Source: Methanomassiliicoccaceae archaeon (GTDB lineage: Archaea; Thermoplasmatota; Thermoplasmata; Methanomassiliicoccales; Methanomassiliicoccaceae). From it: a stretch of DNA of 64,000 nucleotides. Of this stretch, positions 17,190-52,446 are shown in pieces. Below the pieces are notes generated by a model. It was not told where the DNA came from. It ran no database searches and was given only the letters and a program-made list of their open reading frames with translations. The translations under genes and the position numbers were made by a program. How positions within the stretch are numbered: position 1 is the stretch's first letter; each line of letters starts with the position of its first letter. Where the stretch lies: NCBI GenBank assembly GCA_040776945.1, contig JAXGZN010000001.1, forward strand, positions 1,042,720 through 1,106,719, read 5' to 3'.

Positions 17190-18080
17190 TCAGCGCTCGA
17201 TCCCGGCGGCGCGGCAGGCCGCCGTGACGGTGTTCTTCATCAACATCACTATGGTCATCGGACCAACGCCCCCCGGCACCGGAGTTATCGCGGAGGCCTT
17301 GACCGATACCGCATCGAAGTCCACGTCCCCGACCCACCGATAACCTCTCTTGGCCGAGGGATCGTCCACCCTGTTGGTTCCGACGTCGATGACCACTGCC
17401 CCCTCCTTGATCATGTCCGCGGTGATGAACCCCGGGGACCCGATGGCAGCCACGACAATGTCCCCTGTACGCACGATATCGGCCAACCCTCGAGTGCGGG
17501 AATGGCACACCGTGACCGTGGCGTTCGCGCCCTTCTTCTTCTGCATGAGGATGGCCGCAAGGGGCTTTCCCACTATGTTGCTGCGGCCGACTATGACCAC
17601 GTGCTTCCCATCGGGATCGTTCCCGGAGCGCAGCAGCATCTCCTGGATGCCGCTCGGTGTGGCCGGCAGGAACACTGGATCGCCTATGAGCATCCTGCCA
17701 ACGTTGATGGGGTGGAACCCATCGGCATCCTTTGACGGGTCGATGCGCATGATCACCTTGTTCTCGTCGATATGTTTCGGGAGAGGCAGCTGAACCAGGA
17801 AGCCGTGGATAGCAGGGTCCGAGTTCAGTTCGTCCACCGCGTTAAGCACATCGGCCTCGGAGGCATCGTCCGGCAGAAGGACCGTGCGGGAGTGGAGGCC
17901 GAGCTCCTGACAAGCCTTGACCTTGTTGCGCACATACTGCTGCGAGGCCGGGTCCTCCCCCGCCAGCACCACTGCCAGCCCGGGGACGGTCCCCCTCTCC
18001 TTAAGTTGTGCGATCTTGACCCTGAGCTCCTGCCTTATCTGTTCCGCGACCTCTGGACCGTGTATGACCTTCGCAGCCAT
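17190..18080 (-). CDS. folD: Methylene-H4folate dehydrogenase/cyclohydrolase
   Basis: YVRNK, VQLPLP, KDADGFHP, VGRSNIVGKP, VIDVG, TPVPGGVGPMTIVMLM. Confidence 0.96.
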   Translation of the reverse strand: MAAKVIHGPEVAEQIRQELRVKIAQLKERGTVPGLAVVLAGEDPASQQYVRNKVKACQELGLHSRTVLLPDDASEADVLNAVDELNSDPAIHGFLVQLPLPKHIDENKVIMRIDPSKDADGFHPINVGRMLIGDPVFLPATPSGIQEMLLRSGNDPDGKHVVIVGRSNIVGKPLAAILMQKKKGANATVTVCHSRTRGLADIVRTGDIVVAAIGSPGFITADMIKEGAVVIDVGTNRVDDPSAKRGYRWVGDVDFDAVSVKASAITPVPGGVGPMTIVMLMKNTVTAACRAAGIER

Positions 18081-18737
18081 TTGCCAAACCTTCTCGGAGT
18101 AGTGGTGAGAGGGGCTATAACCTTGGCGATGACCGGCGGTCTTTTGGCCGGCCGATCCCTTGCCATTCCGAGACTTGGGGCGGTGCATCGCCGAGGTTTC
18201 GGCAAGGACTTGGAAGAGCAATACCTATGCCGCCCGCATTGAGGGACCATATCGCGGGGACGCCTCTCCCCATCACCGGCCCGGCCAAATTAGGTTCAAA
18301 AGATCGATCGGACGCTGGCGGTGGTTGCCATGGAGAACATCACCGTCATCGTGCGGCCCACGCCGCTCCGTCGCTTTCCGCCCGCCCGGCGGTCGACAAT
18401 CCCAGTGCGAACATGATCGACCCCGCGATCGCCGAGAGGAACGAGAACATCGTCGCTGCAGGAATGCGGGTCGATGCGCACTATACAGAAGGCCGGTTCG
18501 ATCGGGGCGCTGGTCACAGCGTCCCAGGGGGCATCATTGTCACTTTCTCCTATGGGAGCGCCGATCGAGCGCTCAGCGACAATGACCTGGCCATCGATCG
18601 ATCTTTACCCGGACCGGTGGAACAGTGCCGGTAAGAGGCCCGGCCCGCATGGGGCCTGGATGGGGCAAGGACCGCCAAGACCTCTACGGCCGCTCCCACG
18701 TCCCGAACGGTTTTTAAGTCTCCCTTGACTTCCCCCG

Positions 18738-20429
18738 ATGACCAAGATGAAGGCCGACATCGATATTGCCCAGGAGGCCATCGTGCGCCCGATAGAGGAG
18801 GTGGCCGCCGCCATGGGTCTGTCCAGGGACGACCTGGAGCTGCACGGACGTTACATGGCCAAGGTCCCGCTTTCCGTCCTGCGCCGAATGGACGACCGCG
18901 AGGACGGGAAGCTTGTCCTGGTGACCGCGATCACCGCGACCAAGGCCGGGGAGGGGAAGACCGTCACCTCCATCGGCCTCATGGAGGCGCTGGGACACAT
19001 CGGCGTGAAGGTGATGGGCGCTCTGCGGGAACCGTCCATGGGTCCGGTGTTCGGCATCAAGGGCGGCGCCACCGGGGGAGGTCTGGCGCAGGTCTACCCC
19101 ATGTGGGACATCGACCTGCACTTCACCGGGGACATCCATGCCGTGACCTCCGCCCACAACCTGCTCTCGGCCATGGTGGAGAACCATATAGCCCACCGCA
19201 ACGAGCTGGAGATCGACCCGACCAGGGTGGTATGGAAGAAGGCGATCGACATGAACTGCCGCGAGCTGAGGGACATCGTGGTGGGCCTAGGCGGACGCAC
19301 TGTGGGAGGGGTTCCGCGAGAGAGCGGGTTCTTGATCACCGCGGCATCCGAGATCAGCGCCATCCTTGCATTGGCCACCTCCATGGACGACCTGAGGTCG
19401 CGGCTTGGACGCATGGTCGTCGCGTACAACGTCCGGGGAGAGCCGGTCCGCGCCTCGCAGCTGGAATGCGTCGGCGCGATGCTGGTGCTGCTGAAGGATG
19501 CCATCAAACCCAATCTGGTGCAAACGCTGGAAGGCCAGCCCGTGTTCGTGCACGGCTTCCCATTCGCCAATATAGCTCACGGCAGCAACAGCCTGCTGGC
19601 CACTAGGTACGCGCTGAAGATGGCTGACGTGGTGGTCACCGAGGGAGGCTTCGCCTCCGACCTGGGGGCGGAGAAGTTCTTCGACATCGTTTGCCGACAG
19701 GCGGGTTTCAGGCCGGACTGCGCGGTCATTGTGGCGTCGATAAGGGCGCTGGCGATGCACGGGGGGGCGTGCCTGGACGATGCCGTCACCTGTGAAGGAG
19801 CGGACCTGGCCTCCCTGCAGAAAGGCTTCGCCAACCTGGACAAGCACATAGAGAACATCCGCAAGTATGGCGTGCCTGCGGTGGTCGCCCTCAACCGATT
19901 CACCACAGATGCCGAGGAAGAGATAGAGGCGGTCCGCGAGCATTGCGCAGAGCTTGGGGTGCCCTGCGCCGTCTCTGAGGTCTATTCGCTGGGAGGCAAA
20001 GGAGGAAGGGACCTGGCCGAGACGGTCATGCGCGTCCTGGGAACACAGCGCAGCGACTTTCGCCCGCTCTACGATACCGCCCTGAGCATCGAGGAGAAGA
20101 TACGCCTCATCGCCACCGAGATCTACGGGGCCAAGGACGTGAGGTACGTCGGCACCGCCAAGAGGGACATTAGAGCGATCGAGCTTGCCGGGAACAACAA
20201 GCTGCCGATATGCATGGCCAAGACCCAGCTTTCCATCACCGACGATCCGAAGCTGAAGGGCGCTCCCCGGGGGTGGACCCTCACGGTGAAGGAGGTCATA
20301 GTGGCCGCCGGGGCAGGGTTCGTGATCCCCCTATGCGGGGACATCATGCTCATTCCCGGACTGCCGTCGGAACCGTCGGCCAAGCGGATCGACCACACCG
20401 ATGATGGGCGTATCGTCGGGCTGAGCTGA
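18738..20429 (+). CDS. fhs: Formate--tetrahydrofolate ligase
   Basis: AGEGKTVTSIGL, REPSMGPVFGIKGGATGGG, LHFTGDIHA, FPFANIAHG, DLGAEKFFDI, CMAKTQLS. Confidence 0.96.
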   Translation: MTKMKADIDIAQEAIVRPIEEVAAAMGLSRDDLELHGRYMAKVPLSVLRRMDDREDGKLVLVTAITATKAGEGKTVTSIGLMEALGHIGVKVMGALREPSMGPVFGIKGGATGGGLAQVYPMWDIDLHFTGDIHAVTSAHNLLSAMVENHIAHRNELEIDPTRVVWKKAIDMNCRELRDIVVGLGGRTVGGVPRESGFLITAASEISAILALATSMDDLRSRLGRMVVAYNVRGEPVRASQLECVGAMLVLLKDAIKPNLVQTLEGQPVFVHGFPFANIAHGSNSLLATRYALKMADVVVTEGGFASDLGAEKFFDIVCRQAGFRPDCAVIVASIRALAMHGGACLDDAVTCEGADLASLQKGFANLDKHIENIRKYGVPAVVALNRFTTDAEEEIEAVREHCAELGVPCAVSEVYSLGGKGGRDLAETVMRVLGTQRSDFRPLYDTALSIEEKIRLIATEIYGAKDVRYVGTAKRDIRAIELAGNNKLPICMAKTQLSITDDPKLKGAPRGWTLTVKEVIVAAGAGFVIPLCGDIMLIPGLPSEPSAKRIDHTDDGRIVGLS

Positions 20430-20524
20430 TCGCCGCTCGGCGCCCATGGCCCCGCCTTCGCGTGGACAACGGCGTGCGGTAGTCGCGAAGGGACATGCGC
20501 CAATCTGTGGCGGCTAGGTCTCAG

Positions 20525-21355
20525 CTAAGGCTTCCCCTCGCCCACATGGCAAGAGCTCAGGTACTCGCTCACGGTCATGAACCTATGGCCCATGCACAGC
20601 GCCTTCTGCAGCACCTTCCTCACGTTCTCGATCTCCCTCTCGGCGCGGTCCCTGCTCAGTTCCCCTCCAAGCGACTCGGCGATATGCCAGCTGTGGTCCG
20701 CAAGGACCAGAAGCCCCTCGCTGTGAGCCGACAGCAAGCGATCGTAGTCCTCTGGGGATCTCCGGCCCTCGTGCAGAGGCCACAGATAGGATTGGAGAAA
20801 GCGCCCCCGAGGGTCCCGGCACTGAGCCAGCGGCACCTCCAGGAGGTTCCCCGCAAGGCGGTAGGGACGAAGCCCCTCGCCGATCTCGCCGAAAAGGGTG
20901 GAATCGTACCTCAGGCCGCGTCGCATGAGCACTCTGGACACGCCCTCATCGATGTGCAGGTACGGGCAACGGAAACCTTCAGGACGCGTGCCGAAAACTG
21001 CTTCCAGGGAGGAAAGGGACCGACCTACGATGGCATCGGCCCATTCTTCGGATGGTCGGAAACCGGTGGCATGGCCAGTCAGGTCCTCATGGTCATATCC
21101 GTGCGCTGCCACCTCATGACCGCGCATCAGCTCCTTCAGGTCGTGATCCGCGGAAAGCACTTCGGCGGCCCTGCCTTCCCAGAAGAAGGTCGCCTTGATG
21201 TCCAGGTCACCAAGCAGACGGACCAGCCGCTCCAGCCCGTCCATCGTCGACGAGAACCTGAGGCCGTCCGCACCGCGGCAGCGGCCTTCCACATGGCCGG
21301 CCCGAGGCTCGTTCACGTCCCGGTCGACGTCCACGGTGAACGAGGCAAAGCTCAT
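20525..21355 (-). CDS. Polysaccharide deacetylase (NodB/CE4) family protein
   Basis: FTVDVD, KATFFWEG, HEVAAHGYDHE, GFRCPYL, RYDST. Confidence 0.8.
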   Translation of the reverse strand: MSFASFTVDVDRDVNEPRAGHVEGRCRGADGLRFSSTMDGLERLVRLLGDLDIKATFFWEGRAAEVLSADHDLKELMRGHEVAAHGYDHEDLTGHATGFRPSEEWADAIVGRSLSSLEAVFGTRPEGFRCPYLHIDEGVSRVLMRRGLRYDSTLFGEIGEGLRPYRLAGNLLEVPLAQCRDPRGRFLQSYLWPLHEGRRSPEDYDRLLSAHSEGLLVLADHSWHIAESLGGELSRDRAEREIENVRKVLQKALCMGHRFMTVSEYLSSCHVGEGKP

Positions 21356-21460
21356 GCCGATGCATGGATGCAATGTCTATTAACAGTTATACTCGACGAA
21401 CAATCACCATTTTTAAATAGGCAAAACAGATGAGAAAGGCCAGACTCGCCAGGTGAGACA

Positions 21461-22465
21461 ATGAAGCAGGTTCTTGTTCTGGGCGGCGGCGCAGCCGGTC
21501 TCGCTGCCGCGATCGAACTGTCCCACCGAGGCATACCAACGACGGTGGTGGACAGCGCGCCTCCCCCCGGCGGTCAGGCCTTCCAGCTCGCCTGCAAGGG
21601 CTCACCGGCCTGCCTGAACTGCGATGCCTGCCGGCCTCATGACCTGAGGAGGGAAGCTCTCCGTGACCCGATGATCGACCTTCTCGCCGGCTCGGAACTG
21701 GGCTATGTGGCCCCTTGCAGGGACGGCTTCCAGGCGACCGTCAGGAGGCCGGAGGGGTGCGAGGACCACGAGTTCGCAGCGGTGATTCTGGCCGTCGGCG
21801 CGATGCCGTTCAATGCTGCTATGGACGTCAGATATCGCTACGGGGAGTGCGCCGATGTCCTGACCTCACTGGATGTCGAAAGGGCCCTGCTCGAGACCAA
21901 CGCTCTGGCGGTGCCCTCCACGGGGCGGGACCCAGAGAGCATCGCCGTTGTTCAGTGCGTCGGGTCCCGCGACGTCCACCGGGGCGTGCCGTACTGCTCT
22001 AAGGCGTGCTGCAAATACGCGTCCAAGCTCGGAAGGAGGCTCCGCCACCTGTACCCTGAGATGGAGCTGACCTTCTTCTTCATGGACTGGAGGCCTCTGG
22101 AAGCCTCCGAGCGATCGGTGGGGGATTGGGCCGCCGGGGACCGCATGGTAAAGACCGTGCGGTCCAGACCGTCAGAGGTCGTTCCTGGCGACCGCCCATT
22201 GGTCCGCTATGCGACCGAGGCGGAGGACGTGGCCGAGAAGGCCTTCGACATCGTCATGCTGACCGTGGGCATGGTCCCCCGGCCGGACAATCCGCGGCTG
22301 GCCGAGGCCTTGGGGATAAGTTTGGACGACCAAGGCTTCCTCCGCTCCGCTCGTGACGATGTGCTCGTGGCGGGCACCTGCGCCGGGCCCAAGGACCTGA
22401 AGGAGAGCATAGAGGAGGGCATTGCGGCCGCCGGACGGGCCGCGTCGTTCCTGGAGGCGAAGTGA
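21461..22465 (+). CDS. Minimal HdrA-like flavoprotein (FAD plus [4Fe-4S])
   Basis: GGGAAGLAAA Rossmann motif, CxxxxxCxxCxxC, VQCVGSRD...YCSKACC, GTCAGPKDLKESI. Confidence 0.85.
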   Translation: MKQVLVLGGGAAGLAAAIELSHRGIPTTVVDSAPPPGGQAFQLACKGSPACLNCDACRPHDLRREALRDPMIDLLAGSELGYVAPCRDGFQATVRRPEGCEDHEFAAVILAVGAMPFNAAMDVRYRYGECADVLTSLDVERALLETNALAVPSTGRDPESIAVVQCVGSRDVHRGVPYCSKACCKYASKLGRRLRHLYPEMELTFFFMDWRPLEASERSVGDWAAGDRMVKTVRSRPSEVVPGDRPLVRYATEAEDVAEKAFDIVMLTVGMVPRPDNPRLAEALGISLDDQGFLRSARDDVLVAGTCAGPKDLKESIEEGIAAAGRAASFLEAK

Positions 22466-23538
22466 TGACCGTCCCCTCGGTTCTGGTCGTAGGCTCAGGC
22501 CGTATGGCCTTGGATGCCGCGAGGGAGATCGTCGCTCAAGGCGGGAGGGCCATCCTTGCACGGTCCGGGGGAACGAGACGGCAGTGCGCCCTTCGGGTCC
22601 CTGGGGGCATCGAGGTCATCGATGCTATGCTAGTATCGTTGGAAGGGTCCCCCGGAAGGTTCAGGGCCAACCTCCGCTCCGATGAGGACATGACAGTGGA
22701 ATGCTCCTCGGTTATCCTCGCTCCCGGCCCGGACGACCGTCCCACGCCCCAGGGGACCGTGGACCTCAAAGACCTCGCCGGGCTGGCGGTTTCGGAGGAC
22801 GCGAAAAGCGTGGCCATAGTGGTACGTCCCGGCGCCCCGAGGAGCTCGTTCATCCATGCAATAAGGGCAGCCAGGGAGCTGCGTTCCAGGTCCAGGGCGG
22901 TCGCGGTGTTCGCCGACGAGATGTCAGCCTTCGGCATAGATGAGCTGGAGTACCGCAGCGCACAGGCCGAGGGCGTGATGTTCTTTCGCACGCAAGAGGC
23001 CGTCGTCTCGGCCGGTCCATCGAAGATAATGGCGACGGACCTCGTGGCCGGAAGCGTGGTCAACATAGCCCCGGACATGCTGGCCGTGGTGACGCCCGCA
23101 CCGTTGCGGAACAGAGAGGTACGCATATCCCATCTTTTTTCCGAGGTCCGAGGTTCGCCGAGCATGGGCGCCTCGAGCACGGCCACCGAAGGCGTGCTCT
23201 TCGCAGGCCATGAGGACGAGCTCCTGGAGGAGGAGGCCGTTACCGCCGCGAGGGCCGCGGCGACAAAGGCCATGACGGTCGCCCGATCCCCTCCGGACAG
23301 GAGGGACCAGGCCGCCATTGTGGACCGCGAGAGGTGCTCGGCATGCCTGACTTGCCTCCGGGTCTGCCCCTTCGGAGCTGCAAGGCCGGGGGAGGAGGGC
23401 AAGGCGATCATTGACGGCGCGCGGTGCCAGGCATGCGGGATATGCGTAGGCGCCTGTCCTGGGCGAGCCATCTCGCTGCCCAGCCTCGTCTCCGCGGCCA
23501 ATGGGCGAGAGGCGATATCCATGGGGAGATGCTCATGA
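22462..23538 (+). CDS. Degenerate HdrA-like protein with C-terminal 2x[4Fe-4S]
   Basis: Eroded Rossmann motif (VLVVGSG); LEGSPGRFRA and YRSAQAEGVMF resemble HdrA; CSACLTCLRVCP and CQACGICVGACP. Confidence 0.75.
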   Translation: MMTVPSVLVVGSGRMALDAAREIVAQGGRAILARSGGTRRQCALRVPGGIEVIDAMLVSLEGSPGRFRANLRSDEDMTVECSSVILAPGPDDRPTPQGTVDLKDLAGLAVSEDAKSVAIVVRPGAPRSSFIHAIRAARELRSRSRAVAVFADEMSAFGIDELEYRSAQAEGVMFFRTQEAVVSAGPSKIMATDLVAGSVVNIAPDMLAVVTPAPLRNREVRISHLFSEVRGSPSMGASSTATEGVLFAGHEDELLEEEAVTAARAAATKAMTVARSPPDRRDQAAIVDRERCSACLTCLRVCPFGAARPGEEGKAIIDGARCQACGICVGACPGRAISLPSLVSAANGREAISMGRCS

Positions 23539-23942
23539 GCGAGCCGACGATAGCCATGTTCATCTGCCGGAACGCCAGGGCCGCCCTGACCTCCGCGGAC
23601 GGCACAGAAATGCCGCTCGCCGGTGTGCAGGTCATCGAGTTACCCTGCTCCGGGCGGGTGGACGAGGTCATGGTCCTCAGGGCCCTGCGGCAGGGGGCCT
23701 GGGCGGCGATAGTGGTGGCCTGCCTCGATGGCAATTGCAGGAACTTGACCGGCAACTATCAGGCAAGAAAACGAGTGGATGAGGTCCGCTCTCTGTTGCT
23801 CCAGCTCGGCCTGGGGCCCGATAGGGTCAAGATGTTCAGCGTGGCCTCGAACCAGCGAGCGGTCCTGGCCGAGGCGGTCCGCAAAGTGATGGACGAAGCA
23901 CGAGAAAGAGGGCCGATAAGGATACTGGAAGGTGACCGATGA
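23535..23942 (+). CDS. mvhD: MvhD/FlpD [2Fe-2S] subunit
   Basis: FICRN, IELPCSGRVD, VACLDGNCRNLTGNY, GLGPDRV. Confidence 0.88.
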   Translation: MSEPTIAMFICRNARAALTSADGTEMPLAGVQVIELPCSGRVDEVMVLRALRQGAWAAIVVACLDGNCRNLTGNYQARKRVDEVRSLLLQLGLGPDRVKMFSVASNQRAVLAEAVRKVMDEARERGPIRILEGDR

Positions 23943-24640
23943 TAATCGCCGAGCGCAAGGACCTGAAGCAGATAACTGAGATGCTGGAGGGCCGGAAGCG
24001 CGTCCTGGTGGCGGGGTGCCGGTCCTGCGTTTCGATCTGCCACGCGGGAGGGGAGAAGGAGGTCGCCATCATGGCCGAGGCCCTGAGGCTGAAAGCAGAG
24101 CGTGAAGGCCGGGAGATGGAGGTCAGCGAGGTAGCGGTCGAGAGGCAGTGCGAGAAGGAATGGGTCAGAGGGATCGAACGCCAGGTGGCGGCCGGCGATA
24201 TCGTGCTGAGCATGGCTTGCGGAGTGGGCGTCCAGACCATGCAGGAGGTGTACCCTTCGGTATTGGTCGTACCGGGGCTTAACACCACCAGCATGGGCGC
24301 CCCGGAGGAGGACGGCATATTTGTGGAAAAGTGCGGTGGCTGCGGGGACTGCGTGCTGCATCTCACCGGAGGGGTCTGCCCGATCGCAAGGTGCGCGAAG
24401 TCCCTGCTCAACGGGCCTTGCGGCGGTTCACAGGACGGCAGATGCGAGGTGGACCGGGAAACGCCTTGCGGCTGGGAACAGATATATCAAAGCCTTGGAA
24501 GGCTGGGACGTCTCGACCTGTTGGAGGTGAACATCCCTCCCAGGAGCTGGCTCCCCTCCCGTTCCGGAGGCCCCCGCAGGACCGTCCGGCCTTCAGTGGC
24601 AAAGGGGGCGGAGGAGAGGGCGGCGGAGGTCAGGAGATGA
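23939..24640 (+). CDS. metV: MetV, Fe-S/Zn subunit of methylene-H4F reductase
   Basis: GCRSCVSICHAGG, ERQC, ACGVGVQ, CGGCGDCVLHLTGGVCPIARCAKSLLNGPCGG...CEVD...CGW. Confidence 0.9.
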   Translation: MIIAERKDLKQITEMLEGRKRVLVAGCRSCVSICHAGGEKEVAIMAEALRLKAEREGREMEVSEVAVERQCEKEWVRGIERQVAAGDIVLSMACGVGVQTMQEVYPSVLVVPGLNTTSMGAPEEDGIFVEKCGGCGDCVLHLTGGVCPIARCAKSLLNGPCGGSQDGRCEVDRETPCGWEQIYQSLGRLGRLDLLEVNIPPRSWLPSRSGGPRRTVRPSVAKGAEERAAEVRR

Positions 24641-25548: not shown

Positions 25549-25648
25549 GTAAGGGCGAAAGGATCGGGGAGCTCCATATCGACCAATATTATTCACAGCG
25601 AACAATGCCAAAGATATATCCATGCTCCAGCATATTCACCCTGTTACC

Positions 25649-30691: not shown

Positions 30692-30831
30692 GCTTCCGGT
30701 GCGAAAAAGGCCGCAATGTGATAAAAGCATATCTGCCGCCGGCCGATGGCCAGCGCGGCCATAGGGAAAGCTGCCGTCCAATCCCAAAGTAGTTAATGCC
30801 GATGAAGGATAGGAGCACCCTGTGAGGCACG

Positions 30832-31167: not shown

Positions 31168-31174
31168 GGGCCCA

Positions 31175-31197
31175 GGCCGCCGGGTGGCCCGGCGGCC
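31175..31197 (+). terminator. GC hairpin
   Basis: GGCCGCCGGG-TGG-CCCGGCGGCC, a perfect 10-bp stem just after the stop at 31167. Confidence 0.45.
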
Positions 31198-31279
31198 GAG
31201 AACATTCATTAACAACCTCGGGATATTCCCTTGGCAAACTGTTCTCTCAGCTTGCCTCACTCGCTTTGGAGGCTATGAT

Positions 31280-35628: not shown

Positions 35629-35649
35629 AAAGAACGGATAGGCAAAGCG

Positions 35650-40807: not shown

Positions 40808-41086
40808 GCACGCCCTTATCTCGGAAAGCGCCAGCGCCGCGCCGGCAAATGGAGAGGGCTTGGGAATGTCCACGGCGCGCCCGACAGGACGTCGGAGGCC
40901 CTGGTGCGAATGGAGCGACCGACCTCGCGCTGCCACCCGGCCTGACGGACGCAAAGGAATGGCGGCATATCGGCATGCCGGACGGAAAATAGCAAGCTTA
41001 TTATAGAAGTGCTGATACTATACTAGCTAAACAACTTCGGGTTGTATAGTGGATCAGAGCAGGATCTACATGCAAAGGTGACCGTG

Positions 41087-43252: not shown

Positions 43253-43271
43253 AGGCCGCTAGAGGCGGCCT
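43253..43271 (+). terminator. Hairpin after CDC48
   Basis: AGGCCGC-TAGAG-GCGGCCT. Confidence 0.4.
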
Positions 43272-43476
43272 CGAAACCATTTCCGATCATCATTCTCTAA
43301 CTTCAGGGCGCCTCGCCGGCAACCCTCATCTCGGGCCGTGAACGCCCGGCATATCAGGAGAGCGAGGCCCGGTCCCCGCCCCTGCCGAACGCACCATCCG
43401 CTCCACCATCCGCGCAAAGGTCCCAACAGGCGGAGATGTCCTAATGTTTATTAGACGAGGGAGAGGTACGGCAACC

Positions 43477-44505: not shown

Positions 44506-45251
44506 CCAGCATCATCGCGGTAGCGGGAAAGGGCGGCGTTGGGAAATCAACGCTCGCCGCGCTCCTCGTCCGTGAGCTCGCCTCTCGGTCCGGAAAGGTG
44601 GTTCTGGCGGTGGACGCGGACCCCAACTCCAATCTTGGAGAGAAACTGGGGGTCGAGGTGGAGAGGACCATCGGCGACCTGCGGGAGGACCTGCTGAAGC
44701 GCTCCGATGAGGTGACGGCCGGCGGCTCGAAACAGGAAGCGATGCAATACCAACTGCGCCTGGCAATGGTAGAGGGCCGGGACTTCGACCTGCTGACCAT
44801 GGGACGTTCCGAAGGCCGCGGGTGCTACTGCTACATCAACAACCTGCTCCGTACGTACCTGGACTCGATCATGAGCGACTATCCGTACGTGGTCATCGAC
44901 AACGAGGCGGGCATGGAGCACCTGTCCCGGCGGACCTGCCAGCGCATGGACGCGCTGATCATCGTCACCGATGCCACGAAGGTCGGCCTGATGACGGCGG
45001 GCAGGATACTCGCCCTGGCCAGGGAGATGGAGCTCGAGATAGGGTCGGCGGTCCTGGTGGTCAACCGGGTGAAGGGAGAGCTGCCGCGGCCGCTGAAGGA
45101 CGCCATCCCTGAGGGCTTTGCGCGCGTCGCCCTGGTGCCCCACGACCAAGCGATCGAGGACCTCGCGTCGTCCGGGGGGCCGCTGACCTCGCTGCCCAGG
45201 AACAGCACGGCCGCGCAGGCGGTGCGCGAGCTGGCCGGCGAGCTGAGGTAG
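44502..45251 (+). CDS. cooC: CooC/AcsF nickel-insertion ATPase
   Basis: AGKGGVGKST, VDADPNSNL, MGRSEGRGCYCYIN, DNEAGMEHLSR. Confidence 0.9.
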   Translation: MTSIIAVAGKGGVGKSTLAALLVRELASRSGKVVLAVDADPNSNLGEKLGVEVERTIGDLREDLLKRSDEVTAGGSKQEAMQYQLRLAMVEGRDFDLLTMGRSEGRGCYCYINNLLRTYLDSIMSDYPYVVIDNEAGMEHLSRRTCQRMDALIIVTDATKVGLMTAGRILALAREMELEIGSAVLVVNRVKGELPRPLKDAIPEGFARVALVPHDQAIEDLASSGGPLTSLPRNSTAAQAVRELAGELR

Positions 45252-45336
45252 CGCAGCGTTCTCCGCGGCCGTCCAGCTCTCGGAACCTTTATGCTCCCGC
45301 ATTTATTAACTTCCATGAATAGGTGGGGTCAAGTGC

Positions 45337-46230
45337 ATGAGGCTCAAGGGCAAGTTCGTGGCGCTGATCGCCGTGGTCATGATAGTTCTCACCGCCGTTC
45401 TGGCCTCCTGGATCGTGGGCTCGGTGCAGGGGAGCAGGGTCGCCTACGTCGCGGTGCGCGCGGATAGGGCGAGCTACAGCATAGGGGAGAACGTGACCTT
45501 CTCCCTGGTCCCGCTGTCACAGGACGTGCAGTTCACCGTGGATGGCGGGGAGGGCGGCGGCGTGTACATAATCCGCCTGCCGGACGACATCGACCCGGAG
45601 ACCTACCTCGACGACCCGAACGTGCTGAACGACCTCATGGGCCTGAGCTTCTACCATACGGGCGGGGAGACCAAGGTCCCCCTGCCTCGGTTCAGCTCTT
45701 CCGGGGAGCCTCTGCAGATGAGCTGGAACGGGACGATCAATTCCATCTATTCCGGGAACAGGAGCTGGGAGCAGGCCACCGCCGGGCACTACCTTCTGTA
45801 CCCGGCCTACAGCTGGGAGTACGGGCACGCCACCAAGTTCATGCTCGAGCGGGCCTCCATCTTCCGCCTCGACGGCCTCGGGGTCAAGATGAACATCTCG
45901 CTGGAGAGCTCGGTATATACCATCCGCGCCGATCTCACGCTCCCCGCCGGAGCGGCGCCGGTGAGCGGCCTCTTCACCACGGCCCTGCCTGACTGCGGCG
46001 AAGGCTACAATCTCACCACGGTCTATCACAACGAGACCCTGGACCTGAGGCCCGGGGAGACCTCAACGGTCACACTGACCTATGCCGCCCAGGACAGCGG
46101 CCACGGGCCGACGACCACGAGCCTGATAGCCAGGTTCATCACCGATGAGAGGACCTACCTCTTCGGCTTCGACTCGTACATCCGCTACAGTAACAGCGGC
46201 GCGTGGGAGGTGCACTATGTCCGGTACTGA
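45337..46230 (+). CDS. Hypothetical membrane-anchored/secreted protein, first gene of an ABC operon
   Basis: N-terminal TM, then a beta-rich body (DRASYSIGENVTF, MSWNG). Confidence 0.7.
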   Translation: MRLKGKFVALIAVVMIVLTAVLASWIVGSVQGSRVAYVAVRADRASYSIGENVTFSLVPLSQDVQFTVDGGEGGGVYIIRLPDDIDPETYLDDPNVLNDLMGLSFYHTGGETKVPLPRFSSSGEPLQMSWNGTINSIYSGNRSWEQATAGHYLLYPAYSWEYGHATKFMLERASIFRLDGLGVKMNISLESSVYTIRADLTLPAGAAPVSGLFTTALPDCGEGYNLTTVYHNETLDLRPGETSTVTLTYAAQDSGHGPTTTSLIARFITDERTYLFGFDSYIRYSNSGAWEVHYVRY

Positions 46231-47130
46231 CGTCCTCAGGGGAACGGACCTCTCTAAGACCTACGGGAACCGGTTCACCAGGGGCAACATCCGCGCCCTG
46301 GACCGCGCCTCCTTCTCCATCCAGGAGGGGGAGATCTGCGGGCTGGTGGGTCCCAACGGCGCCGGGAAGAGCACCCTGATCAAGCTGGTCATGGGCATCG
46401 AGCCGAGGGACGAGGGCGCGGTGGAGATGAACGGCTCGGACCCCCGCGTGGCGCTGGGGTACGTGCCGGAGAGGCCCACCTTCTTCGAGGACCTCTCCGC
46501 CTACTACAACATCCTGTACTTCGCCCGGCTGACCGGCGCGGCGGACCCCGAGGGCACCAGCCGCAGGCTGATCGACGAGTTCGGGCTCAAGGGCCGCGGC
46601 GATGACCGCGTCTCCTCCTTCTCCAAGGGCATGAAGCAGCGCCTGGCCATCGCCCGGGCGGTGGTCCATCGTCCTAAGGTGCTCATCATGGACGAGCCCT
46701 TCTCCGGCCTCGACCCAGGCATGATGATCGAGCTCCGGGGCCTGCTCAAGGGCCTCAGGGCACGGGCATGGCCATGCTCCTGTCCTCGCACGAGCTCAAC
46801 GAGATCGACCAGCTGTGCGACTCCATCCTGTTCATCAAGAGCGGGAAGATCATCCGCCGCGAGGACCTGGACCGCCCCCGGCCCCGGGCGGTGGTGCAGC
46901 TGATGCTGGAGGAGGCGAGCGACGCGGTGACGGAAGCGCTGTCCCGCTGGAGCAAGGTGTCGCTCTCCGCCGACCGCAGAACGATCACCGTGGAGGCGTC
47001 CAGGGAGGAGGTCCCCGAGGTCGTGGCCGCGGCGGTGAAGGCCGGCGGGAGGGTGCTGGAGTTCCGTCCGGCGCAGGTGAAGGCCGAGGACCTGTACGCC
47101 GAGGTCTTCCGCTCGGAGGTGACCACGTGA
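46217..47130 (+). pseudogene. ABC transporter ATP-binding protein with a frameshift near 46765
   Basis: GPNGAGKST, FSKGMKQRL and IMDEPFSGLD lie in one frame; the H-loop LLSSHELNEI continues in another. One G appears missing in CACGGGCATG. Confidence 0.8.
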
Positions 47131-48047
47131 ACGAGTTCCTCATCCACCTGAGAAAGGACCTCAAGCTGCTAACGTCGGACTCTATGTTCGTCATCTTCCT
47201 GCTGGTGATGGCGGTGGCCTCGTTCATCATCGCCCTCTCCACCTGCGCCGGCTACGTGCAGGGCAACACCTACGGCAGCTCGGTGGTCACCCGGGCGTCG
47301 CTGGAGCTTGCCCAGAAGAGCGCGCTGGTCAACTACTGGAGCGTCGTGGGCGGGCTGCTGACGGCGATGCTCATGGGCGCTGCGGCGATGGCCATGGGCT
47401 CGGAGAAGGAGAGCGGGATGGGCCGCTACACGATGAGCCACAGGGTCCGGGGGTCGCTGTTCTACCTGAGCAAGCTGCTCCTGGTGGTGGCGATGGTGGC
47501 CATGGCGATGGCCATCGCTCTCGCGGCATACCTCATCGTGTTCTCCTTCATGGACGTGCCCATGCTCGACCTCGGCAGCCTGGCCCTGTCCATGGCCTTC
47601 CCCTTCCTGGCCATGATGGTGTTCGCCTCCCTCGGCCTGGCGCTGTCCACCCTGGGCACCAAGAAGGGAGCGATGGTGGCCATGGCGGTGGTGCTGTTCA
47701 TCGCGCTGTCCGCGGTCTCGTCCATCACCGTCAACATGGCCCCCTACGCGGCCATGCAGGCCGATCCCAGCGTCAACTTGGGCAACTACACCGAAGCCCT
47801 GCCGCTAGAGTACGCGATGGCGATCTACGCCAACCCCATGGTGCTCTCCTACGGGAGCATGTACGTGCTGGGGACCGCCGATGCCGGCGTCGCCCCGCTG
47901 TACGATGCCGGCGGAGCCATCCTGCTGGCCGCGGTCTTCTTCATCGCCTTCACCGCGCTGGGCCTGGTGCTGATGTCCCGGGAGCGCATGGAACGCTCCT
48001 GGTCGGCGCGGGCCATGGAGCTGCTGGGAAGGGCCAGGGGAGGTTAG
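47127..48047 (+). CDS. ABC-2 type permease
   Basis: GTG start overlapping the upstream stop; six TM segments; SEKESG and FYLSKLL. Confidence 0.8.
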   Translation: MNEFLIHLRKDLKLLTSDSMFVIFLLVMAVASFIIALSTCAGYVQGNTYGSSVVTRASLELAQKSALVNYWSVVGGLLTAMLMGAAAMAMGSEKESGMGRYTMSHRVRGSLFYLSKLLLVVAMVAMAMAIALAAYLIVFSFMDVPMLDLGSLALSMAFPFLAMMVFASLGLALSTLGTKKGAMVAMAVVLFIALSAVSSITVNMAPYAAMQADPSVNLGNYTEALPLEYAMAIYANPMVLSYGSMYVLGTADAGVAPLYDAGGAILLAAVFFIAFTALGLVLMSRERMERSWSARAMELLGRARGG

Positions 48048-49369
48048 AGCGAGCGCAGCATCTTGGAGATGCCGGACGATTCCCGCGGGCCGACGATGAT
48101 CTTGACCCCGACGAGCTCCTGCAGCTTGCCTGACATCCTGGCCAGCATCCCGGGGATGATGAGCATCTCCCGCCTGCTCTTCTCCAACGCTCCGCTGGAC
48201 CTCATCGCCTCGGCCACGCTCTCGGCCGTCAGCTTCCCGGCGGAGTAGGCGGTCATGACCGAGAGGCCCTCGGCGTCCACCACCAGGAGCCATGCCGGCA
48301 TCCGGCTCTTCTCGATGTCCGCGGCCACGGTGAAGTAGGTCAGCGAGAAGTTGGTGGTGAAGAGCACCGGCGAGCTCTCTCCGGGATTGTTTATGGGATA
48401 AAGGCCGGCCTTCACCTGCAGAGGGACCTGGGGGTCGGTGTAGATGTTCTGACGGAGCGTGAACAACGGCAGCGCGTGCGCCGGGTCAAGGTCGTCCATG
48501 AGGACTATGCCGCCGTACTTCATGGTCGAGACCATGGCCATCAGCACCGCCTGCCCGTTCCCGCAGGCGTTGGTGATTATTGGATAGCCAAGGCCGCGGA
48601 AGGTCCTCTTCACCGCGTTCTTCCGGACGATGGTGTTCCTCTCCACCACCTGCTGAAGCCCTTCGGGGCAAAGGTCGAGCACCATGTCCTCGACGCCGGA
48701 AGCATGCACCTTCTCAACAAGGGCGGCCAATCCGTTCAGGTCGGCATGCCTTACGGCCAACGGGAACCTCAGCTCCTTGGCCGCTGCGGCCAGGGCCTCC
48801 CAGTTGCTCTCGTCCGCTGCGTAGATCAGCGGCCTGGAGAGGTTCGCCGCCGACGCCGCGGCCCTGACCGCTGCGGCGTCCGGGCTCATGAGCACCAGGG
48901 GCAGCGCCGACTCCCTCGCCACCCTGGCGACCACGGACGCGAACCTGGCAGCGTCGCCGGAATCGTTACGGACCCCTAGCATGTCCACCGCCAGCATCTG
49001 TCCGACGCGCTCGAACCTAAGGTCCGCGGCCCGCCTCAGCTTTGCGGCTATCTCCTTGTCCGCGGCGCGGTCCGAGATGACGATGGCGTACCTGGTCTGG
49101 TGGAAGAACTTCTTGTCGTGGCGGTAAAGCTCCGTCTCGTCCCCTATCTCGACCTTATTGCTTCCGGCGCCGATTGAGACCAGTCTAATCGGCGGGGCCG
49201 AGGACGCCTCCAGCTTGGCCTTCGCTTCGTCCGAGACGTACGGGCAGTCAGCGAGCTTGGCCTTGGAGTTTGCCAGCTGCATCGCGAACGCCAGGCATGT
49301 CGGGAAGCCGCACTTCCCGCAGTTCTTCTTCGGGAGGAACTTGAAGAACTCGATGGCCGTGGGCATCAC
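48044..49369 (-). CDS. acsC: Corrinoid Fe-S protein large subunit (AcsC/CdhE)
   Basis: LPKKNCGKCGFPTCLAFAM...CPY, RQNIYTDPQ, TTNFSLTYFTV, GLSVMTA, VGPRES. Confidence 0.94.
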   Translation of the reverse strand: MMPTAIEFFKFLPKKNCGKCGFPTCLAFAMQLANSKAKLADCPYVSDEAKAKLEASSAPPIRLVSIGAGSNKVEIGDETELYRHDKKFFHQTRYAIVISDRAADKEIAAKLRRAADLRFERVGQMLAVDMLGVRNDSGDAARFASVVARVARESALPLVLMSPDAAAVRAAASAANLSRPLIYAADESNWEALAAAAKELRFPLAVRHADLNGLAALVEKVHASGVEDMVLDLCPEGLQQVVERNTIVRKNAVKRTFRGLGYPIITNACGNGQAVLMAMVSTMKYGGIVLMDDLDPAHALPLFTLRQNIYTDPQVPLQVKAGLYPINNPGESSPVLFTTNFSLTYFTVAADIEKSRMPAWLLVVDAEGLSVMTAYSAGKLTAESVAEAMRSSGALEKSRREMLIIPGMLARMSGKLQELVGVKIIVGPRESSGISKMLRSL

Positions 49370-50289
49370 TGACCACCTCTCAGTCCGTCGATCGCTTCCC
49401 GGAGTATTCCCATGGCCTCAGGGCTGCGGACGATGAGGATCTCGGCCCCGGACACCAGGGCCGCGAGCCCGGTGGTCGCCTCCCACCATGCGCCCCGCTC
49501 CCCCGCTTCGCCCCACAGGGCGTTCTCCTCCGTGGCCTCGCGGGCCTCCCAGGATGAGGTAACGTCGCACAGCATCGGCACCTGGAGCATGCGGTCCCCC
49601 ATCAGCGCGGCGATGCGGATGCGCTCGTTGACCGAGTAGGAGTACTCAAGGCCCATGCCCAGGCAGGCCATGAGGGGGTCCATGAGCACGTTGTCGAGCT
49701 TGACGCCGAAATCGGCGAGCAGGATGTTCATCTGCTTAGCCAGATTGATGTCCAGGTTGGAGAAGGCGATCAGCGCGTGGCGGTTGGCCATCGCCGCGGC
49801 GGAGATGGTCTTGTACGCCGTCTCCTCGGCCTGTCCCAATATGATGCGTTCCCCCGCGCAGGCGTTGCTCACCGCCTCCATGGTCTTGGCGTCCTTCTCC
49901 TCCTGGCCGCAGCCATAGACGATCACTGGCACACTGACGGCCTTGATCACGTCGACGACCGTCCTGGCAGCATCCTCCGGTGACGCGTCCATCCCCTCGG
50001 GGTTGGTGCTTCTCAGCTTCAGGCACACGAGGTCCGCCCCGAGGTCGGAGGCCCACCTCTTCGCCCACTCCACCGGGTCCTTTACAGCGTCGCCGAACTT
50101 GCGGACCGCCAGTTCCGTGAGAAGGGAGGGATCGTCGATGATCTCTCCGGCCAGAAGCTGTCTCCGGCCGAGGCCTTCGTAGGAAAGGAAGGGCATTCCC
50201 GTCGCGCCCCCCACTTCTGCGGACGCGCCGAGCGCGACAGTCCCGATCTTCCCTGACCACTTTTCCTTGGGGATTGGTACATCGACCAT
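49366..50289 (-). CDS. acsD: Corrinoid Fe-S protein small subunit (AcsD/CdhD)
   Basis: DPVEWAK, DINLAKQMN, MDP...LGMGLEYSYSVNERIRIAALMGD. Confidence 0.92.
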   Translation of the reverse strand: MVDVPIPKEKWSGKIGTVALGASAEVGGATGMPFLSYEGLGRRQLLAGEIIDDPSLLTELAVRKFGDAVKDPVEWAKRWASDLGADLVCLKLRSTNPEGMDASPEDAARTVVDVIKAVSVPVIVYGCGQEEKDAKTMEAVSNACAGERIILGQAEETAYKTISAAAMANRHALIAFSNLDINLAKQMNILLADFGVKLDNVLMDPLMACLGMGLEYSYSVNERIRIAALMGDRMLQVPMLCDVTSSWEAREATEENALWGEAGERGAWWEATTGLAALVSGAEILIVRSPEAMGILREAIDGLRGGQ

Positions 50290-50304
50290 TTTGATTCCTC
50301 TCGA

Positions 50305-52446
50305 TCACGATAGCAATGGGGGCATCCTCAGCGCCGGGTGGTCGACCTTGACCATCCACTCCATGAGGCCCTCGGCGTCGGTGGTAACGGTCTCGTCGGC
50401 GATCTTGTCCACGAAGTCCGGCTCTCCGAGCTCCTCGGCCCGCTTCTGGAGCGCGTCGCGCATCGCCTCCTTCAGCTCCCTGGGCATCCAGGCGATCCTC
50501 AGGAACCCGCCGTCGGCAGAGATGAACTTCCGGCTGGTAATATATTTTCTTCCAATGCCGATGAAGCCGGGCGTCTGTCTCCCGCCGCCGACCGAGCCGG
50601 CGAGGGAGGAGAACTTCATGCCGATCGGCGTCATCCCGGCATACTCGCGGTTGACGGCGATGACCGCCTGGGCGTCGGCGGTCATGGCCACGATCACCTC
50701 GAAACAACCGCAGGAGGTCATAGGGTCCTCCATCATGGTGTAGGCGTTGAACCTCTCGATCTTGTGGTGCGTCCCCTCGAACACCGCCTCGTTTATCCCG
50801 CGCCACTGGCCCTTGGTCTCGTCGAGGCATTCCCCCTTGAGGATGCCCCGGTTCGGCCCGTTGGGGTCGATCTCCTCCGCCGCCTTGGCATCCAGCCAGT
50901 TGACGGCGCCGCACAGCCCCAGGCGCTCCGGGGTTATGATGCAGATATGGTCCGGCGCGAAGGAGCTGCACAATGTGCAGACATACAAGGTGTCCACGCT
51001 CTCGTCGGTCAACCCAGCGACGCGGGCGTCTCGCTGCGCATAGACCTCCAAAGCCTCAGGCAGGCGCTTCCGCACTTCGTTCTCATCGGTGACGATGGTG
51101 ACCTGCACCCGGGACACGATGTTGCCGAACTCCTCCTTGAGCTTGGTGATTAGGATGTCCCCGAAGTGCTTGAACCTGAGCCCGGCGGCCACGGCCGGCT
51201 TGCTCAGCCGGATCCACAGGATGTTCCTCTGCCCAGTGTGCCACGCTCCCTCTGCATAGTTTACGAAGAGGTGGATGCGCCTCTCCAACACGCCCTCGAA
51301 ATCCTCACTCATCCGCTTGCCGTAAACGTCCACGAGGATGGCGATCGGGGTCTTGCCGCCTTCGGGCATCGCGTCCACGTCCGGGCCGATGACCTCGATG
51401 CGGCCATCCTGGACCTCGTCCTCCGGGCGGACGCGAAGAAGCTCGAACGCCAACGTCTTGGACGCTCCCCCCGCCTCGGTATAGGTGTCCGGCCTGCGGA
51501 CCACCTCGCCCTCGAACGCGGGGCCGTAGGCGACGGGGATGTTCACCGGCGCCAGCTTCACCTTGATGCCCCGGAGCTCGATGGCCTCCTGGACCATCTT
51601 GCCCGGCTCCGTGACCTGCACCAGCTTCTCCGGTATGCCCTCTACGGGCTGGTCGGTGACGATGCACGCGCCGTTGAGCACCGCCGCGAAGGCCGCCCCC
51701 GCGAGGACCGGGTCCAGAGGGCCGAACTCAAGGACGAATACCTTTGGCCGCTTTGCCAGGTATGAGGCGGTTCCTTCGCGGTCGCCTCTCTGCACCCCCC
51801 CGAAGGAGAGCGCGGCACGGATGGCGAAATTGAGGGCGTGGACGATCTGGGTCCCGTGACCTACCGGGTACAGCCTCGAGCGCTCCCCCATCTGCACGTT
51901 CTTCGAAGCGAGCTGCTCGATGACCTCGCCCGACGCGATGATCAGGATGCCTTTGGACTGGAGGTCACGAACGATGCGCACCAGCGCGTCCGCGTCCGGG
52001 TACCTGCCGACGATGACCGCCGCTCCGGGGATGGTGTCATCGACGAAGGCGAACCCCAGCTCCCGGATGATCTTGTCCGGGATGAACCCCATGTACGGCG
52101 TGCCCTCATATGGCCGCCGGCCGCCAACGTACTTGAGCGCCTCGATGACCTCGGCCGCGATCATGGTGACCTCGCCGGCCGCCAGCGCGTTGGCCGCTGT
52201 CGGCTCGTACGCCAGCTTGGAGCGGCACGAGCTCAGGATGGGGACGAGCTGCCCCAGTGTCCTGGCCTCCCGCCCGTCCCAGGCGTACACCGCCGGCAGC
52301 TCGTAGCAGGTCTCCGGATACTCCACCGGATGCTCGGTCCCATGCTTGGAAAGCGCTTCCTCTAGCGCGGAATCTGCAAGGTCCAGGGCCGCATGCCCTC
52401 CCTGGATGGCGAGGGCGAACAGGTCATGATTGGAGATCTGGTTCAC
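50305..52446 (-). CDS. acsB: Acetyl-CoA synthase, bacterial-type with N-terminal domain
   Basis: 713 aa; YPETCYELP, GPAFEGE, VLERRIH; A-cluster ligands CTLCSSFAPDHIC...LCGA and PMTSCGCFE. Confidence 0.93.
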   Translation of the reverse strand: MNQISNHDLFALAIQGGHAALDLADSALEEALSKHGTEHPVEYPETCYELPAVYAWDGREARTLGQLVPILSSCRSKLAYEPTAANALAAGEVTMIAAEVIEALKYVGGRRPYEGTPYMGFIPDKIIRELGFAFVDDTIPGAAVIVGRYPDADALVRIVRDLQSKGILIIASGEVIEQLASKNVQMGERSRLYPVGHGTQIVHALNFAIRAALSFGGVQRGDREGTASYLAKRPKVFVLEFGPLDPVLAGAAFAAVLNGACIVTDQPVEGIPEKLVQVTEPGKMVQEAIELRGIKVKLAPVNIPVAYGPAFEGEVVRRPDTYTEAGGASKTLAFELLRVRPEDEVQDGRIEVIGPDVDAMPEGGKTPIAILVDVYGKRMSEDFEGVLERRIHLFVNYAEGAWHTGQRNILWIRLSKPAVAAGLRFKHFGDILITKLKEEFGNIVSRVQVTIVTDENEVRKRLPEALEVYAQRDARVAGLTDESVDTLYVCTLCSSFAPDHICIITPERLGLCGAVNWLDAKAAEEIDPNGPNRGILKGECLDETKGQWRGINEAVFEGTHHKIERFNAYTMMEDPMTSCGCFEVIVAMTADAQAVIAVNREYAGMTPIGMKFSSLAGSVGGGRQTPGFIGIGRKYITSRKFISADGGFLRIAWMPRELKEAMRDALQKRAEELGEPDFVDKIADETVTTDAEGLMEWMVKVDHPALRMPPLLS

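Follow-up and report, generated by a model that had tools for sequence, protein, structure and literature searches.

A bacterial-type tetrahydrofolate and acetyl-CoA synthase gene block without an adjacent CO dehydrogenase gene in a Methanomassiliicoccaceae archaeon

Why would a methanogen keep a bacterial-type acetyl-CoA synthase (ACS) when no gene for carbon monoxide dehydrogenase (CODH) lies beside it? The question arises from a 64-kb stretch of DNA, here called the window, which is the last 64 kb of contig C1 in the genome of a Methanomassiliicoccaceae archaeon (G000). Positions 17190–52446 of the window hold 15 pathway genes that look intact and encode, between them, all the enzymes leading from formate to acetyl-CoA on tetrahydrofolate (H4F). 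We read this region as a conserved, bacterial-type block for one-carbon and acetyl-CoA metabolism that would be mainly biosynthetic and reversible, with the likeliest flow starting from acetate-derived acetyl-CoA, and we give that reading about an even chance. We infer both the function of the block and the direction of flow through it, that of ACS itself included.

For gene identities, the long open reading frames (ORFs) of the window were scanned with Pfam and NCBIfam profiles. The pathway genes, as predicted from these matches, are as follows (window positions, strand, product).

17190–18221, minus strand: FolD, methylene-H4F dehydrogenase/cyclohydrolase (PF02882, 220 bits; PF00763, 143 bits)
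18738–20429, plus strand: Fhs, formate-H4F ligase (PF01268, 819 bits, full length)
21461–22465, plus strand: HdrA-like flavoprotein 1 (Pyr_redox_2; partial match to HdrA2 NF040770, 155 bits, far under the cut-off)
22462–23538, plus strand: HdrA-like protein 2, with a 2x[4Fe-4S] ferredoxin domain (Fer4 families; partial match to HdrA2, 64 bits)
23424–23942, start probably near 23535, plus strand: MvhD-like protein (PF02662, 96 bits; VhuD NF045873, 73 bits)
23939–24640, plus strand: MetV, methylene-H4F reductase small subunit (PF12225, 115 bits)
about 24643–25548, plus strand: MetF, methylene-H4F reductase (PF02219, 141 bits; MTHFR part of NF006396, 209 bits)
29915–30787, minus strand: AcsE, methyl-H4F:corrinoid Fe-S protein methyltransferase (Pterin_bind; NF005719, 281 bits against a cut-off of 259)
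31106–32836, plus strand: PurH, AICAR formyltransferase/IMP cyclohydrolase, a consumer of formyl-H4F (PF01808, 372 bits; PF02142)
38087–39955, plus strand: RACo/AcsV, reductive activase of the corrinoid protein (RACo_C_ter, Raco_middle, RACo_linker and Fer2; NF040756, 573 bits, under the cut-off of 800)
43444–44505, plus strand: MesB-type core methionine synthase, a short MetE-like protein (weak PRK00957 match, E 9e-5)
44502–45251, plus strand: CooC/AcsF-type Ni-insertion ATPase, overlapping mesB (CbiA/ParA families; P-loop; CxC at residue 108)
48044–49369, minus strand: AcsC, corrinoid Fe-S protein large subunit (PF03599, 345 bits; PF04060 FeS domain)
49366–50289, minus strand: AcsD, corrinoid Fe-S protein small subunit (PF03599, 116 bits)
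50305–52446, minus strand: AcsB, bacterial-type three-domain acetyl-CoA synthase (NF040764, 938.8 bits against a cut-off of 800, positions 1–704 of 705)

A preliminary description of this DNA had named the same genes, and the Pfam and NCBIfam searches bear it out for all 15, in span and in order. It was also right that the window encodes every step from formate to acetyl-CoA on H4F and that it contains neither a CODH nor an enzyme of the tetrahydromethanopterin (H4MPT) branch. Its word "dispersed" is a fair one, since unrelated genes lie between those of the pathway, namely genes for a polysaccharide deacetylase, a PD-(D/E)XK nuclease, a PIN protein, an archaeal phosphoenolpyruvate carboxylase, an S-adenosylmethionine (SAM) methyltransferase, a Cdc48 protein and an ABC-2 permease.

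Despite these interruptions, the block (FolD, Fhs, the MetFV row, AcsE, PurH, RACo, MesB, the CooC-like ATPase and AcsCDB) is syntenic in the congeners G054 and G051 and in G065, a member of family f3. AcsB is present and no Ni-CODH was found in the two congeners, while G065 has a fused AcsAB. Given synteny across these three genomes, the block is not a chance grouping.

The host genome (2,166,111 bases in 2 contigs, with no N, 99.84% complete) encodes McrA, together with two MtmB proteins of the Pyl type:

C2:361129–362478, minus strand: MtmB, with an in-frame TAG
C2:370070–371419, plus strand: MtmB, with an in-frame TAG

Searches of the genome did not find Mch, Mer, Mtd or Ftr, and a genome search for formate dehydrogenase (Fdh-alpha) was likewise negative. 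Because McrA and two MtmB are present and Fdh, Mch, Mer, Mtd and Ftr were not found, the gene content identifies the organism as a methyl-reducing methanogen with a folate one-carbon branch and no H4MPT methyl branch, as the preliminary description had thought probable. MtaB was not found in the G000 genome, though all ten other genomes of the genus carry 1–4 copies, and neither MttB nor MtbB was found there; with its two MtmB, G000 looks like a monomethylamine specialist, to judge from its genes. The closest AcsB proteins in named records belong to Methanomassiliicoccus sp. (90, 89 and 84% identity).

AcsB itself is of the bacterial kind. Its domains are PF18537 (N-terminal A1, 83 bits, residues 26–107), PF03598 and PF19436; the A1 domain is a feature absent from archaeal CdhC, and residues 9–295 of our protein align with 9fu4_B, a chain that consists of the N-domain only. 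The bacterial CODH/ACS structures 1mjg/1oao and 7zkj of the Protein Data Bank (PDB), which we take to come from Moorella and Carboxydothermus, are matched over the full length with 776–788 bits (7zkj_B, 788 bits over residues 9–712), and PDB 1ru3 ("Acetyl-CoA synthase") with 787 bits. The A-cluster motifs C-x2-C-x8-C-x9-C (residues 490–513) and S-C-G-C-F (578–582) are in place, with identical residues in 7zkj_B; presumably the four Cys hold the cubane and Cys-Gly-Cys forms the Ni site. A corrinoid protein, AcsE, RACo and a CooC-type ATPase complete the likeness to the bacterial system, and similar gene neighbourhoods occur in Sporomusa and Actinomycetota loci. The AcsC/AcsD/AcsE/RACo set is recognised as such by its families, but NF040758 gave only 169 bits against 370. 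The gene for the CooC-like ATPase (to which we apply the name AcsF as an assumption of ours) is kept beside acsC in relatives.

The difference from the bacterial system concerns CODH. In the bacterial loci the CODH gene lies directly beside acsB. The two enzymes form a complex with a CO tunnel, according to a 2026 preprint (PMC13370988), which also lists AcsB in Methanomassiliicoccales and Thermoplasmatota. In G000, profiles and tblastn revealed no CODH gene beside acsB, either in the window or within 11.5 kb upstream. The position in which sister lineages have acsA, the CODH gene, is occupied instead by the following gene, which is kept there in G054, G051 and G006:

52596–53651, minus strand: ACT-domain protein, upstream of acsB (PRK08577-like, 97 bits, under the cut-off)

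Is CODH then missing altogether? Within the window it was not found by the Prismane family profile or by tblastn with two CODH types. Across the genome the Prismane family matches two places, C2:14675–16339 and C1:416629–417900, one of which is a hybrid-cluster protein (NF003658, 687 bits). The other is a stand-alone CODH outside the window, accompanied by its own maturation factor:

C2:14462–16396: CooS, stand-alone Ni-CODH (TIGR01702, 670 bits against a cut-off of 478)
directly upstream of cooS (the pair spans C2:13.6–16.4 kb): CooC-like ATPase with a CxC motif

No further CODH was detected in the genome by tblastn with the two CODH types. The label "CODH-less" in the preliminary description therefore holds for the window only; for the genome it fails, largely because the window stops short of cooS. 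Indeed, C1 ends 11,554 bases beyond acsB, at the right edge of the window, and its tail is collinear with G045 up to 482.6 kb, while the head of C2 (3.9–21.6 kb, cooC–cooS included) is collinear with G045 at 522.7–540 kb, in the same orientation. Since both are collinear with G045, C1 and C2 are probably neighbours, which would place cooS about 26 kb or more from acsB. Where acsB and cooS lie on one contig, the distance is 50 kb (G066), 64 kb (G069) or 89 kb (G045).

Public RNA data offer a glimpse of expression, in the form of Logan contigs, in which depth and strand are unreadable and DNA carry-over is possible. In four RNA libraries, contigs reach into cooC and cooS and cover them in part, and six libraries hold 56–92% of the sampled words of the ACS stretch (window 44400–52500), the four runs that cover cooC/cooS holding 72–92%; the bin L098 12007–12673 is near-empty in all four. 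We take these contigs as weak support for transcription of cooS and of the ACS stretch. The preliminary description had named a co-expressed CODH elsewhere, the mark of an ordinary complete pathway, as a finding that would refute it. This is partly the case, since the gene exists and the partial coverage in those four libraries is weak evidence of its transcription.

Such an ordinary pathway has to be weighed at this point. CooS would make CO from CO2, and AcsB would build acetyl-CoA for biomass. The methyl group would be supplied by methylamine, by way of corrinoid proteins or of MtrAH and methyl-H4F, or else by formate, by way of Fhs, FolD and MetF. CooS, CooC, AcsB, AcsCD, AcsE, RACo and an AcsF-like ATPase are all encoded, cooS probably shares the chromosomal neighbourhood of the block, the N-terminal domain of AcsB is retained and conserved, and the RNA contigs reach both cooC/cooS and the ACS stretch. 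However, with Fdh not found, CO2 has no entry into the methyl branch, and the CooS of G000 belongs to a class other than the ACS-linked CODHs, coexisting with a fused AcsAB in relatives. Cultured relatives are grown with acetate, which we also count against assimilation of this kind. The medium of an Hg-methylation assay lists 20 mM acetate (PMC4646819).

What weighs most directly on this possibility is how the genes are distributed. We sampled 151 genomes of Methanomassiliicoccales, 23 of them (G000 excluded) in family f1, the Methanomassiliicoccaceae:

AcsB: 101 of the 151 sampled genomes; 23 of 23 in the family
MetF: 77 of the 151 sampled genomes; 20 of 23 in the family
MtrH: 62 of the 151 sampled genomes; 6 of 23 in the family
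CODH-level match to CooS: 14 of 23 in the family

Nine of the 23 family genomes therefore carry AcsB without a Ni-CODH match, three with weak matches only (E 8e-5 to 2e-4) and six with none, and eight of these nine are 94–99% complete. When five of the nine, two of them single-contig genomes, were searched again with PF03063, we obtained either nothing or short or Hcp-like matches at the places of the weak hits, in the two-piece pattern of the hybrid-cluster protein of G000. It follows that whatever ACS is conserved for cannot rely on CO generated inside the cell, and we consider the assimilatory route possible but rather unlikely.

Within the genus of G000, MtrH occurs only alongside a CooS of the same type (G000, G037, G045, G066, G069 and G075); G029 has CooS alone, and four genomes have neither. 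Some genomes retain ACS although we found no CODH and no MtrAH in them, which fits a role independent of both. We prefer a mainly biosynthetic, reversible hub because ACS, the corrinoid protein AcsCD, MesB and the folate branch persist whether or not CODH and MtrAH do, and because MesB and PurH lie inside the block.

MesB deserves a closer look in this respect, being the gene that would lead methyl groups straight into methionine. Its residues H223, C225, D244 and C320 (offsets +2, +21 and +97) have the spacing of the Zn ligands of Dehalococcoides mccartyi MesB, given as 214/216/235/311 (PMC7857596). The same paper takes 173 bits to DET0516 as its threshold for MesB. The gene lies 3.5 kb from acsC, and archaeal and Actinomycetota loci share this neighbourhood. 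We read the MetE-like protein encoded at 43444–44505 as a predicted MesB that would receive its methyl group from the corrinoid protein.

In the biosynthetic hub as we picture it, acetate-derived acetyl-CoA would be cleaved by AcsB, and the methyl group would pass to AcsCD, kept active by RACo. From AcsCD, MesB could transfer the methyl group directly to methionine, and AcsE could transfer it to H4F. MetFV with the HdrA-like and MvhD proteins, followed by FolD and Fhs, would then convert methyl-H4F to methylene-H4F, formyl-H4F and formate, to serve purine synthesis and other needs. The CO released would exchange freely and be oxidised by CooS to CO2 and reduced ferredoxin, and the latter could feed an Fpo-like complex encoded at the start of the window:

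904–8214, minus strand: subunits of an Fpo/Nuo-like complex (two Proton_antipo_M proteins, NADHdh and Complex1_49kDa)

In genomes that have CooS, these enzymes might also work in synthesis, assembling acetyl-CoA from CO2 and a methyl group.

A number of points weigh against this picture. One-carbon units could come from serine or from substrate methyls without any cleavage of acetyl-CoA, as GlyA, MtrA/MtrH and MtmB are all encoded in the genome. The enzyme that would activate acetate is uncertain: homologues of AMP-forming synthetases number two, and with 524 and 499 bits they stay under the cut-off of 725 for the acetate-activating AcsA family. CooS, CooC, the AcsF-like ATPase and RACo fit synthesis equally with cleavage. 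The distribution counts come from sampled, kin-related genomes, some of them drafts, in which a gene is "not found" rather than "absent". The N-domain of AcsB is as conserved as in relatives with the fused protein, so a CODH partner may persist; in bacteria this domain docks CODH (PMC13370988). Finally, MetF and AcsE are both present, unlike in Dehalococcoides as described in PMC7857596.

How did AcsB come to stand alone? Window proteins were compared by tblastn with 80 loci collected by AcsB match. In 10 Methanomassiliicoccus-like loci (upstream flank at least 6.9 kb) no CODH was found near acsB by tblastn, whereas a CODH runs right up to the start of acsB in 28 more distant loci (53–69% AcsB identity) and in most of the bacterial ones; one of the 28, L041, sits in a record titled bacterium. 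In 16 of 18 archaeal loci acsA and acsB form a single open frame of 1218–1429 residues, and in the other two they are separate and adjacent. The fusion is found in most related Thermoplasmata and Methanomassiliicoccales (L017–L044, L052, L083 and L085; for example, L020:8054–12133), and adjacent yet separate genes are seen in L029, L030, L032 and L034. Across the order, CODHs of a class with about 40% identity lie in open frames of about 1365–1390 residues that include AcsB.

An AcsB tree (49 sequences, 711 columns, FastTree with LG+gamma) nests the family's stand-alone clade, supported at 0.999, within the fused one, supported at 0.96 and 1.0, so the loss of the CODH module is secondary. The tree, like the identity ratios given below, uses 48 of the 80 loci, hand-picked as those with full-length AcsB matches; the fragmentary archaeal loci L011, L016, L021, L025, L037, L040, L041, L045, L046, L077 and L083 and 21 further bacterial loci were left out. 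No acsA remnant was detected by tblastn in the G000 genome.

The CooS of G000 is not that module relocated. It scores 698 bits against 6b6v, 483 against 1su6 and 474 against 1mjg_A, and the fused CODH module of L020 scores 704 against 1su6, 662 against 1mjg_A and 520 against 6b6v. On these scores the lost module and the resident CooS are of different CODH classes. Moreover, CooS of the latter type coexists with a fused AcsAB in many family f3 genomes. By these comparisons the resident CooS is a paralogue with a separate history and not a displaced acsA.

We also considered that the N-domain of AcsB might have evolved faster once the CODH module was gone, and rejected this idea: when identity to 14 bacterial AcsB proteins is taken for each domain and the N-domain value divided by the C-domain value, the ratio is 0.617–0.667 for 10 stand-alone proteins and 0.612–0.678 for 21 fused ones, so that the two groups are alike. 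As a separate observation, AcsB of genus g8 (family f3) is extended at its N-terminus by about 280 conserved residues (L116:2825–3664, L114), with no Pfam family and no similarity to CODH. This extension may have taken the place of the CODH module in a second and different way.

Another possibility, put forward in the preliminary description, is that ACS works independently of CODH altogether. CooS would then do an unrelated job, such as drawing electrons from outside CO to reduce heterodisulfide or detoxifying CO, and AcsB would exchange CO with the medium only. The loss of the fused module without a remnant agrees with this, as does the class of CooS, nearest to PDB 6b6v, presumably a stand-alone CODH enzyme; the flanks of cooS, which hold an F420/NADP oxidoreductase-like gene, cooC and a nitroreductase-like gene and no ACS genes, point the same way. 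In addition, PDB 1ru3, which is nearly as close to AcsB as 7zkj_B, we take to be a monomeric ACS form active without CODH. However, uptake of outside CO is a supposition, cooS shares the neighbourhood of the block in three congeners, and the proposal shades into the biosynthetic hub, which also has CO diffusing freely. We regard it as very improbable.

A related proposal takes AcsB of the whole family to be orphaned by deletion of its CODH module, with the enzyme, its corrinoid protein and the folate branch retained in all sampled genomes, closed ones without a Ni-CODH match among them, and to run on free CO, either cleaving acetyl-CoA with release of CO, in the manner of Dehalococcoides, or scavenging outside CO; genomes with both CooS and MtrAH could then link acetate or CO to methane. 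We find this distinctly unlikely. If true, it would loosen the supposed strict dependence of these organisms on H2.

The comparison with Dehalococcoides, drawn already in the preliminary description, is apt for the family, in which the cognate module was lost and several relatives have AcsB and no Ni-CODH match; it does not hold for G000, which has CooS. The incomplete Wood–Ljungdahl pathway of D. mccartyi likewise comprises ACS, a corrinoid protein and MesB, with no cognate CODH (PMC7857596), and cleavage of acetyl-CoA has been proposed to supply its methionine methyls (PMC7857596, citing Zhuang et al. 2014). D. mccartyi is, however, described as having neither MetF nor AcsE (PMC7857596); G000, an archaeal methanogen and not a bacterium, has both, plus CooS.

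Could the block take part in energy metabolism? Speth and Orphan (PMC6147122) proposed that acetate is split and its methyl group passed through AcsE and MtrAH to CoM and on to methane, or else that substrate methyl groups enter as methyl-H4F and are oxidised to formate, Fhs yielding ATP and the need for H2 being lessened. G000 encodes the pair concerned, and it matches the soluble MtrA/MtrH pair described in Methanomassiliicoccales (PMC6147122):

C1:328714–330378 (L005:712–2376): soluble MtrA and MtrH, MtrA directly upstream of MtrH, without membrane subunits

Besides this pair, the Fpo-like complex in the window, the confinement of MtrH within the genus to genomes with CooS of the same type, and the existence of the proposal in print (PMC6147122) all speak for such a role. 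On the other side, the authors themselves call both routes highly uncertain (PMC6147122), a genome search found no FocA/FdhC-family formate transporter, Fdh was not found either, and the partnership of the HdrA-like and MvhD proteins with MetFV is only predicted. The co-occurrence of MtrH and CooS within one genus is weak evidence, the genomes being related by kinship. Neither do MtrH and AcsB form a fixed module: genus g11 has MtrH in five of five genomes and a real AcsB match in none of them (one weak match of 25 residues, E 2.9e-4), whereas all g2 and g3 genomes have AcsB, with MtrH in none of the four of g2 and one weak match (E 6.6e-21) in the six of g3. A catabolic role thus receives very little of our confidence.

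Two further ideas about this pair were dropped. A TAG inside the MtrH match had suggested pyrrolysine, but translation shows it to be the stop codon after residue 296. The idea that methyl-CoM is formed solely through MtrAH from methyl-H4F was rejected in view of the two TAG-bearing MtmB genes. As for MtrA, the protein has 256 residues and PF04208 covers only 6–140, leaving a long C-terminal extension.

The folate branch also bears comparison with a bacterial enzyme. In Moorella thermoacetica, the MetFV-type methylene-H4F reductase has Hdr-like and MvhD partners, with MetF, MetV, MvhD, HdrA and HdrBC together. The present genes are similarly arranged, in a five-gene row (hdrA'-hdrA''-mvhD-metV-metF) with 4-base overlaps that is kept in G054, G051 and G065. 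Unlike in Moorella, HdrA is represented by two shorter paralogous genes, each matching parts of HdrA profiles, and HdrB and HdrC were seen neither in the row nor among its scanned neighbours, the genome beyond not having been searched for them.

Much of this has precedents in the order. The MALP draft genome (Speth and Orphan 2018, PMC6147122) was described with ACS/CODH, a full one-carbon tetrahydrofolate pathway, soluble MtrAH and no Fdh, and the authors raised acetate cleavage and methyl oxidation to formate, calling both uncertain; an oxidative use for purine synthesis had been proposed by Lang et al., as related in the same paper. PMC10804542 surveys 243 genomes and reports an H4F branch leading from formate to acetyl-CoA, and PMC7857596 reports that Methanomassiliicoccales have MesB only and proposes that MesB takes methyl groups from the corrinoid protein. 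Our genome agrees with the set described in PMC6147122 and PMC10804542 in its order, its folate enzymes, ACS with the corrinoid protein, soluble MtrAH, and the lack of Fdh and of an H4MPT branch, and the same hypotheses (acetate cleavage, methyl oxidation to formate, purine precursors) are raised there. There are two differences. The accessible text of these papers speaks of "acetyl-CoA synthase/CO dehydrogenase" and leaves it unspecified whether the two are fused, adjacent or apart, whereas here AcsB is unaccompanied and a distinct CooS, encoded outside the block, is the sole CODH; and MALP is described as methanol-only (PMC6147122), whereas in G000 we found MtmB and not MtaB.

The notion of a one-carbon hub put forward in the preliminary description agrees with these accounts (PMC6147122, PMC10804542, PMC7857596), and its three hypotheses have, by the same accounts, already been published in similar form. 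Since the order's pathway and the roles proposed for it are known from PMC6147122, PMC10804542 and PMC7857596, the printed picture is unchanged by our results. What they add is a comparative point: most related Thermoplasmata have the CODH module fused to AcsB, and this family has lost it. Neither the acsA–acsB fusion nor its loss was found in the literature searched, supplementary tables not being covered, so that novelty is unproven. The fused, separate and CODH-free states form a natural series for the study of ACS without a docked CODH. Members of the Methanomassiliicoccales are regarded as methyl reducers with a strict need for H2, and efforts to cut methane emissions from ruminants and digesters are aimed at them. 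Their carbon requirements, partners and niche depend in part on whether the block serves biosynthesis only or also moves carbon and electrons among acetate, CO, formate and methane.

Some minor features of the window remain to be mentioned. An ORF of odd composition at 20495–21433 (plus strand) belongs to no family and is probably spurious; the gene at that place is instead the polysaccharide deacetylase gene on the opposite strand (20525–21373, minus), which lies between fhs and the hdrA-like genes and is conserved at the same place in relatives. The segments 33618–36093 and 41042–43225 encode a weakly Vps62/NPP1-like protein of 575 residues, two small ORFs without a family and the Cdc48 ATPase. 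Nothing corresponding to these genes is seen in the blocks of G054, G051 and G065 that are syntenic with ours, and on this comparison the two segments are likely to be local insertions. Other features near the pathway genes are as follows.

25622–26443, plus strand: protein of 273 residues with two CxxC pairs, directly after metF; no Pfam or NCBIfam family; counterpart only in G051 among G054, G051 and G065
13792–14838, minus strand: methanogenesis-marker-11-like protein (221 bits, under the cut-off of 256)
11175–12902, minus strand: B12-binding radical SAM protein TIGR04190 (636 bits against a cut-off of 500)

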